Shown here piece after piece: positions 4,807 through 6,269 of a stretch of 19,830 nt of DNA. The DNA lies in IMG/VR virus record IMGVR_UViG_2537561977_000028; one strand, written 5' to 3'. Positions within the stretch are counted from its first letter, which is position 1; every line of letters starts with the position of its first letter. This DNA is from a virus. Taxonomy: Duplodnaviria; Heunggongvirae; Uroviricota; Caudoviricetes. The position numbers and the translations under genes were made by a program. The notes below the pieces were generated by a model. The model saw only the letters and a list, made by a program, of their open reading frames with translations. It ran no database searches and was not told the DNA's origin.

Positions 4807-4920
4807 CCAACATCCAGCTCATTGAAGCGCAATGTCGCATCGAACAGGTTCAGACTGTTTTAGGGTTCTGGCTTGAAGGGGCCATCCCCATGAAGTGGTC
4901 AACAAAAACTGGCCACCGAG

Positions 4921-5739
4921 TTAGAGTTTTTTCCAGTATCGATTTTCCGATTCGTTTGGTGGTAACCCACCATTATATTCGTGCGGTCTTAGTGCGCTGT
5001 AATATCCAACGATATAGTCCGTTATGGCGTGAGCTGCCTCGCTGAAGCTTACGTAACCCACCACCGGCATCCATTCGTTCTTCAGACTCCTGAAGAAGCG
5101 TTCCATTGGGCTGTTATCCCAGCAGTTTCCGCGCCGGCTCATACTCTGTCTGATCTGGTATCGCCACAATAACTGCCGGAACTGCCTGCTCGTATAATGA
5201 CTGCCCTGATCGCTGTGGAACATCACCCCGCCGGGCTTACCACGGGTTTCCCATGCCATTTCCAGCGCTTTCATGGTGAGCCTGCTGTCCGGCGAGAACG
5301 ACATGGCCCAGCCCACTGGTTTTCTTGCGAACAGGTCGAGAACAACGGCGAGGTACGCCCAGCGCTTACCCGTCCAGATATAGGTCACATCACCGCACCA
5401 CACCTGATTTGGCTCGGTCACGGCGAACTGCCTTTCAAGGTAGTTAGGGATAGCAACATGTTCATGACCACCACGTTTATACCGGTGAGTCGGCTGCTGA
5501 CAGCTGACCAGCCCCAGCTCTTTCATGAGCCTGCCAGCAAGCCAGCGTCCCATCTGGTAGCCTCTCCGGGTTGCCATTGTGGCGATGCTTCTTGCTCCGG
5601 CCGAACCATGGCTGATGCCATGTAGCTCAAGTACCTGACTGCGTAATACAGCCCGTCTGCCGTCTGGTTTTTCAGGACGGTTTTTCCAGTATCTGTAGCT
5701 GCTGCGATGAACCCCGAACACATGGCAGAGAGTGGCCAC
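4921..5739 (-). CDS. IS3-family transposase OrfB (DDE integrase core); expressed as OrfAB fusion by -1 frameshift
   Basis: ORF-track translation has the DDE-type core (WCGDVTYIW..., [10 protein letters not shown]..., [15 protein letters not shown]). The orfB frame extends upstream to the slippery site at 5811-5817. Confidence 0.85.
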
Positions 5740-5765
5740 AGGATAACGCGCCCTGAGTTTCCCGA

Positions 5766-6068
5766 TTATCGAGAACTGTTCAGGGAGTCTGACATCAAGA
5801 GCGCGGTAGCCTTTTTTAATATTTCATTTTCCATTTCAATACGTTGTAGCTTTTTCCTGAGCTCACGGATTTCAATTTGTTCCGGGGTAATGGGGGAGGC
5901 TTTTGGTGTTTTTCCCTGCCGCTCATCACGTAATTGTTTCACCCATCGCGTCATTGTGGAAAGGCCGACATCCATAGCGCTGGCTGCATCTGCCACGGTG
6001 TAATTCTGGTCAACGACCAGTTGAGCGGATTCGCGTTTAAACTCTGCGCTGAAATTTCTTTTTTTCAT
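5766..6068 (-). CDS. IS911-type transposase OrfA (HTH/leucine-zipper), 100 aa
   Basis: Translation from the internal Met, [50 protein letters not shown]..., matches my memory of IS911 OrfA. Start taken at 6068 rather than the track start at 6104. Confidence 0.85.
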
Positions 6069-6269
6069 TATGGCACCTGTGTTGTTCTGAGGTGAGCATA
6101 TCACCTCTGTTCAGGTGGCCAAATTCAGTAAACCACTTCACCAGCAACAGAGACAAGTTAATGATTGGCGCGGTTATGTCACTGCTCAATGGCGTACCAG
6201 AAGCTATTCAGGAAGCAGACGAATTGTTGGGCAAATATGAGTTACAGAATCATTCAGGCGAGGCGAAAC

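Follow-up and report, generated by a model that had tools for sequence, protein, structure and literature searches.

An insertion sequence (IS) of the IS3 family interrupts a 73-codon gene in the viral DNA record IMGVR_UViG_2537561977_000028, a stretch of 19,830 nucleotides (nt) called the window below. In our reading, an intact IS911/ISEc52-type IS has very probably been inserted, recently, in a small conserved gene of a satellite that resembles EcCIMP1, a phage-inducible chromosomal island (PICI) of Escherichia coli; the operon that leads to the primase gene is probably silenced; and the island is decaying in one lineage. The parts are of known kinds (an IS3-family insertion, a described PICI family), and the event is an ordinary mobile-element insertion.

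The inserted element and its target

A scripted recount, together with a reading of positions 4600-6500, gives the IS a length of exactly 1250 bp: it begins with TGAAGTGGTCAAC... at 4891 (longer read TGAAGTGGTCAACAAAAACTGG...) and ends with ...AAACCACTTCA at 6140 (longer read ...CAGTAAACCACTTCA). Its terminal inverted repeats carry the tips TG...CA and agree at all 9 outermost positions and at 25 of the 36 in total; in a three-way alignment both ends are identical to those of annotated ISEc52 and IS911 copies. Immediately outside them lie the two copies of CCA that form the target-site duplication (TSD). Elements of the IS911 type transpose by copy-out/paste-in, and the 3-bp duplication is the footprint of such an insertion event.

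The interior of the element is equally undamaged. The open reading frame (ORF) orfA overlaps an orfB phase that is open all along, and the element has the slippery heptamer for programmed frameshifting (Table 1); around this heptamer, the IS911 copy and the ISEc52 copy do not differ in alignment columns 313-388. As modelled, the OrfAB fusion protein scores 380.7 bits against NCBIfam NF033516 (IS3 family transposase; cut-off 160) and matches the Pfam families HTH_Tnp_1 (E = 1.6e-15) and rve (E = 4.5e-32). All four hallmarks of an IS911-type member of the IS3 family are thus present: inverted repeats, two ORFs with a slippery site, an N-terminal helix-turn-helix (HTH) plus a C-terminal DDE domain, and a 3-bp TSD. 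The IS is therefore structurally complete, with frameshifting predicted from the motif. A preliminary description of this DNA had listed a complete IS911-type element with both inverted repeats, both ORFs, the heptamer and a clean CCA duplication, and each of these withstood the exact recount.

The preliminary description also held that the IS splits a 73-codon gene and that excision restores one ORF. Removal of the IS and one CCA indeed yields a 73-amino-acid (aa) ORF identical to WP_000181940.1 except for S28I; the annotations of strain PF9285 and of MP1, the strain of EcCIMP1, place WP_000181940.1 at the corresponding site. For the function of the gene, Pfam and NCBIfam gave no matches and PHROGs gave only families of unknown function (PHROG 20558). 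To search for the empty site, 400 bp of each flank were joined with one CCA, and a genome was counted when at least 80% of the query length was matched; this query matches 486 complete E. coli genomes, and the best matches listed are in one piece at 98.9-99.8% identity. When the window flanks are aligned to PF9285 and to a contig from the Logan read archive, they overlap only at the CCA, which is single-copy there. The flanks are therefore contiguous in relatives that lack the IS, as an alignment proposed in the preliminary description was meant to reveal, and its impression that the insertion is recent draws support from the same result.

The occupied site, by comparison, was found nowhere else: a 300-bp junction query spans the junction in 0 of 5426 complete E. 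coli genomes, a 40-nt left-junction pattern has no exact match in the genome or metagenome contig collections, and exact look-up of the two junction ORFs (the 80-aa chimera and a 61-aa ORF at the right junction) in the protein collection returned no match. For annotation, both junction ORFs are artefacts of the insertion. On this evidence the insertion is real and private to this genome among all collections searched, and it is probably recent. IS911/ISEc52 copies are highly repeated in E. coli genomes (median 3 places, maximum 25), and repeats are a common cause of misassembly, so that one might ask whether an assembler misplaced a repeated IS into the island; a misjoin, however, would yield neither a perfect 3-bp direct duplication of a CCA that is single-copy in the empty site nor exact TG...CA termini at both junctions, and we consider such an artefact extremely unlikely.

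Two details of the target deserve mention. The S28I difference is a single-nucleotide polymorphism 5 bp from the insertion; we rejected the idea that the insertion caused it, as the I28 allele occurs uninterrupted in the Logan contig, and it is best read as an ordinary polymorphism. The sequence TGAAGGGGCCA at 4874-4884, 7 bp from the insertion point, matches the IS terminus TGAAGTGGTCA at 9 of 11 positions; about 5 matches of this quality are expected per window by chance, and targeting by a sequence resembling the inverted repeat is a weak post-hoc hint only.

The IS itself is a composite. It is 97.5% identical in nucleotide sequence to an IS911-annotated copy on the Shigella flexneri plasmid pCP301 and 97.5% identical to ISEc52-annotated copies of E. 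coli. Under the ISfinder convention, isoforms share about 95% or more identity along the whole length; the overall value of 97.5% was obtained against the annotated IS911 copy of pCP301, and the differences behind it are clustered by segment. Counting differences by position in the three-way alignment (window IS, IS911 copy, ISEc52 copy) resolves three segments (Table 1), with crossovers located within IS positions 411-430 and 1116-1168. These counts identify the IS as an ISEc52-type backbone (left end, orfA and the last ~130 bp) that carries an IS911-type orfB segment of about 700 bp. The label IS911-type used in the preliminary description is correct at the family level, but the element is an ISEc52/IS911 recombinant rather than plain IS911. 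The mosaic structure explains why no full-length copy above 98.6% identity was found in the 5426 genomes or in PLSDB plasmids and why the modelled OrfAB fusion has no exact match in a collection of 15 billion proteins, although the exact OrfA sequence alone is common there (on at least 1000 contigs). The 272-aa orfB ORF likewise has no exact match in the protein collection. In a small way, the element illustrates how IS3-family relatives that reside together recombine.

Table 1. Features of the window discussed in the text (window positions unless marked as IS positions)
Feature	Position	Strand	Basis or remark
Complete IS3-family IS, ISEc52/IS911 mosaic by position-wise differences, TG...CA ends	4891..6140	-	1250 bp; sequence recount
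Left TSD copy, CCA	4888..4890		single-copy in IS-free relatives
Right TSD copy, CCA	6141..6143		single-copy in IS-free relatives
Right inverted repeat (IRR), with TTGACC outward -35 box facing lower coordinates	4891..4926	-	identical in all three aligned IS copies
Left inverted repeat (IRL), ISEc52 type, TGAAGTGGTTTAC...	6105..6140	-	alignment with annotated copies
orfA, 100 aa, HTH_Tnp_1	5766..6068 (6068->5766)	-	frame recount and Pfam
A AAA AAG slippery heptamer for -1 programmed frameshift	5811..5817	-	motif at IS position 324
orfB phase, rve/DDE catalytic domain	4921..5823 (5823->4921)	-	open all along; -1 phase relative to orfA
IS segment with IRL, orfA and frameshift region	IS positions 1-410	-	differences: ISEc52 1, IS911 27
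IS segment with most of orfB	IS positions 431-1115	-	differences: ISEc52 30, IS911 1
Last IS segment	IS positions 1116-1250	-	differences: ISEc52 0, IS911 3
5' part of split 73-codon gene, codons 1-29	4803..4890	+	now an 80-aa chimera that ends within the IS, with its stop at 5043-5045
3' part of split gene, stop overlapping the next gene's ATG (ATGAATAA)	6144..6277	+	PHROG 20558, E = 7e-9
Four intact downstream genes: 200 aa, 113 aa, 123 aa and a 918-aa Zn-ribbon/Toprim/DUF927 primase	6270..10331	+	likely polarity targets
P4-type immunity RNA module, same transcription direction, upstream of the IS	3673..3900	+	Rfam
isrK-like (seqA-like) RNA, ending in hairpin and T-run	3673..3750	+	Rfam isrK, 67.8 bits (gathering score 50)
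C4/CI-type antisense RNA	3813..3900	+	Rfam C4, 79.9 bits (gathering score 45)
icd-like 64-aa ORF, first of the coupled chain	3954..4148	+	Icd-like in the MP1 annotation
Island integrase (P4-type), frameshifted	1..1214	+	run 331-336 is A6, versus A7 in PF9285 and MP1

Probable consequences for the primase operon

The gene order around the insertion is that of a tightly coupled operon. From alpA (1643) to the end of the primase gene (10331) run 12 annotated genes with gaps of -14 to +12 nt, each with a motif resembling a Shine-Dalgarno (SD) sequence, and the split gene is the fifth in a chain that starts with the icd-like gene and continues with genes of 72 aa, 64 aa, 87 aa and 73 aa on to the primase. 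This bears out the chain of coupled genes leading to the primase that the preliminary description had proposed; its statement that the IS lies opposite to the operon is equally sound, as are the positions it gave for the downstream genes (6270-6872, 6883-7224, 7217-7588 and, for the primase, 7575-10331).

The frame of the split gene now continues into the IS as far as a stop at 5043-5045, which leaves ~1.2 kb of antisense-IS RNA untranslated; on its + strand the IS is 27.6% C and 24.2% G, and all three + frames are full of stops. We propose the following course of events: translation of the split gene would end at 5045; transcripts would then have to cross ~1.2 kb of antisense IS RNA that is slightly rich in C and not translated, along which transcription would run against, and converge with, the IS's own promoter; and Rho-dependent termination, together with the loss of translational coupling, would strongly reduce expression of 6270-10331, primase included. 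With expression so reduced, the island would be unable to replicate autonomously. An untranslated stretch of ~1.2 kb is the standard condition for Rho-dependent polarity, as established for polar IS mutations, and its presence here favours polarity of that type. A polar block of 6270-10331 is on these grounds plausible.

Several observations weigh against such a block, and they would be accommodated if the insertion were real but of little consequence, with 6270-10331 expressed from an internal or activator-dependent promoter downstream of the IS or by read-through and replication unaffected. The + strand of the IS has just two weak terminator-like hairpins (4957-4972 and 5570-5586), a number not exceeding that in shuffled sequences; with no convincing intrinsic terminator inside the IS, any polarity would have to be Rho-dependent. 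Within IRL, a GTG at 6092 opens a 61-aa ORF (6092-6277) that shares the frame of the split gene's 3' part and ends at the overlapping stop/start of the next gene, so that it could restore coupling on read-through transcripts. The four downstream genes carry no lesions; intact genes, however, are equally expected after a recent insertion. Over 6141-7575, from the IS to the primase start, our promoter scan found no + strand site resembling a sigma-70 promoter; the scan is a crude consensus test that finds near-consensus sites only and is blind to weak or activator-dependent promoters. From the icd-like ORF to the primase, however, the genes overlap or abut and leave no intergenic room for a promoter, and the long untranslated RNA would remain in the path of read-through transcription. 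We therefore hold an inconsequential insertion to be unlikely.

The preliminary description offered another way out, in which the IS itself supplies an outward promoter for the downstream genes, primase included, and replication comes to depend on the IS. IS911-type elements do carry an outward-facing -35 box, which is located in IRR (PMC9330008). In the window, however, this TTGACC box points upstream on the minus strand, away from 6270-10331, and of the flank hexamers 16-18 nt past it none shares more than 2 of 6 positions with TATAAT, which leaves no usable -10. The end that faces the primase is IRL, which carries only an inward -10, and a scan of 6000-6900 found no promoter-like site on the + strand. 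The known outward -35 box thus faces the wrong way, and we judge it very unlikely that replication of the island relies on it; polarity on the primase operon remains the reading that we prefer.

The host island, its other lesions and its immunity RNAs

Gene content and order place the IS in an EcCIMP1-like PICI, probably integrated at tRNA-Thr next to proA, of which the window holds nearly the whole. EcCIMP1-type sites are defined by a tRNA-Thr between proA and yagU and by direct repeats of TCCTATTATC. Position 1 of the window is the start of the integrase gene, which in PF9285 lies 165 bp after a tRNA-Thr adjoining proA; the att core TCCTATTATC is found at 19337-19346 (attR), and attL and the tRNA, which fall outside the window, both occur at the corresponding place in PF9285 and MP1. 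The gene content is that of a PICI, with int followed by co-oriented alpA and primase genes, no capsid or lysis genes, and an order that matches MP1. It comprises AlpA, an AntA-type protein, DUF4222, an 'Ash' ORF, small genes, the Zn-ribbon/Toprim/DUF927 primase, DUF2824, P22 gp7-like, P22 injectosome-like and SLT-domain proteins, and PerC.

Positions 11094-16252 hold homologues of the P22 block 14-7-20-16 (DUF2824, P22_gp7, Inj_translocase and a 908-aa SLT-domain protein), which are of the ejection type rather than capsid or packaging genes; the EcCIMP1 paper regards its P22-like block as candidate packaging or DNA-transfer genes (PMC11773190). Clusters of the 9-mer GTTGGTTCA / TGAACCAAC occur at 10355-10470, just after the primase stop, and at 18497-18630, just upstream of perC; each consists of 3 copies in one orientation, an AT-rich spacer and 3-4 copies in the other orientation, and both are also found in MP1's EcCIMP1. 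They look like origin iterons. The right end (19253-19346) contains GGGGGTA(C/T)TT-like repeats at 19256-19275 that are similar to repeats found ahead of the PF9285 int gene and are candidate integrase arm sites. Beyond the att core, 19420-19830 is a fragment of a chromosomal LysR-type gene on the minus strand.

The IS is one of several lesions. The integrase gene has a 1-bp deletion (window 336), and its frame stops after 148 aa. The gene for a DUF2824 protein resembling P22 gp14 (11094-11495) has a 10-bp deletion at 11439 (CTTGGCGCTA in relatives) and encodes 133 aa versus 153 aa. A further deletion, of 13 bp relative to PF9285, lies at 17497 (CGGGTACACCAAT) in an intergenic part of the right arm. 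The integrase frameshift and the 10-bp deletion occur in none of the 5426 complete E. coli genomes, whose best full-length matches have the extra bases. Deletion of int abolished excision and transfer of EcCIMP1 (PMC11773190); as int is needed there, the integrase frameshift alone should immobilise the island of the window. The preliminary description suggested that the IS could immobilise the element, which is incomplete, as it overlooks this private frameshift. The change lies in a run of A and may reflect either a genuine pseudogene or a sequencing error in a homopolymer. Unless the difference in the A run is such an error, the island is probably immobile whatever the IS does. The IS, the integrase frameshift and the DUF2824 deletion would together amount to lineage-specific decay of a satellite, not to regulatory innovation.

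About 1 kb upstream of the IS lie two RNA genes that are intact and that bear on how the operon would be expressed. Matches to the Rfam families isrK and C4 have been reported in PICIs of Gram-negative bacteria and were interpreted there as related to the immunity RNA CI of P4 and to its target seqA, which control early transcription termination (PMC10111431). In the window, a perfect TATAAT stands at 3792-3797. A loop of the C4-type RNA (3856-3864) is complementary over 9 nt to 3936-3944, which spans the AAGGAGG SD sequence of the icd-like ORF; two further segments are complementary as well, and an upstream 8-mer target lies at 3714-3721. In all, the module takes in 3673-3900 and 3916-3944. 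The module thus combines, as in P4 CI and P1 C4, an RNA of the C4/CI fold with loop complementarity both upstream and downstream of it. From the parallel to P4 and P1, we infer that expression of the chain would already depend on coupled translation and on escape from termination.

The annotation of this region calls for a remark. The RNA genes lie inside a 355-aa 'Ash family' ORF (3292-4359), and its Phage_ASH match (aa 124-232, or nt 3661-3987) falls exactly over them; the 3' half of the ORF is overlapped by the icd-like ORF and by the coupled 72-aa ORF (4141-4359). It may be that no 'Ash' protein exists and that this long ORF only reflects the RNA genes read as codons. In addition, window 1-4890 differs from PF9285 by 64 substitutions, of which about 35 are concentrated in the 275 bp of 3324-3598, at the start of the 'Ash' ORF; this suggests a recombination patch.

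It is conceivable that the lesions in the IS target, int and DUF2824 reflect host-favoured domestication, in which replication and mobility are switched off and PerC, the immunity RNAs and the antirepressor-type gene are kept; we find this quite improbable. Coupled to it is the idea that the mosaic element might be a newly arisen and active hybrid IS, and to the two taken jointly we likewise assign only a slim chance. If domestication were true, the strain would be a natural polar knock-out for the control of a PICI primase operon by P4-type CI RNA. Outside annotation the finding has little weight. The satellite is of a kind widespread in E. coli; the copy in the window is very probably defective and is not to be scored as a functional PICI. 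The source strain is nevertheless a natural mutant for asking whether the small genes and the primase of EcCIMP1-type islands form one Rho-sensitive unit under CI-RNA control.

Comparison with known systems

The proposed polarity has its closest likeness, from established knowledge, in the classical polar insertions of IS1, IS2 and IS3 in gal and lac: there, too, an IS sits in a translated operon, translation is truncated and a long untranslated RNA follows.

The immunity module resembles P4 CI/seqA and the P1 c4-icd-ant system (immI), with isrK and C4 matches in tandem ahead of an icd-like ORF. In P4, as here, the module lies upstream of the primase gene; in the window its RNA genes are intact, with the IS downstream of them. 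The published account of EcCIMP1 does not include immunity RNAs (PMC11773190).

Among known systems, EcCIMP1 itself comes closest to the island as a whole. In E. coli MP1 the P22-like helper Kapi1 brings about its excision, circularisation and transfer, for which int and alpA are required (Pick, Stadel & Raivio 2025; PMC11773190); helper-dependent mobility is demonstrated only for MP1's copy (PMC11773190). The two islands share the att core and probably the site, tRNA-Thr beside proA, and they have in common the order int, alpA, antA-like, DUF4222, 'Ash', icd-like, small genes, Toprim/DUF927 primase, DUF2824, P22 gp7/gp20-like, SLT ejection-type and PerC. Identity to EcCIMP1 is 96-99% over 1-4890 and 6141-17619, and MP1 has an intact 73-aa gene. 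The right arm (about 17620-19330) differs from that of EcCIMP1 and is without a second alpA_1. The IS, the integrase frameshift and the 10-bp DUF2824 deletion, in contrast, are found only in the island of the window.

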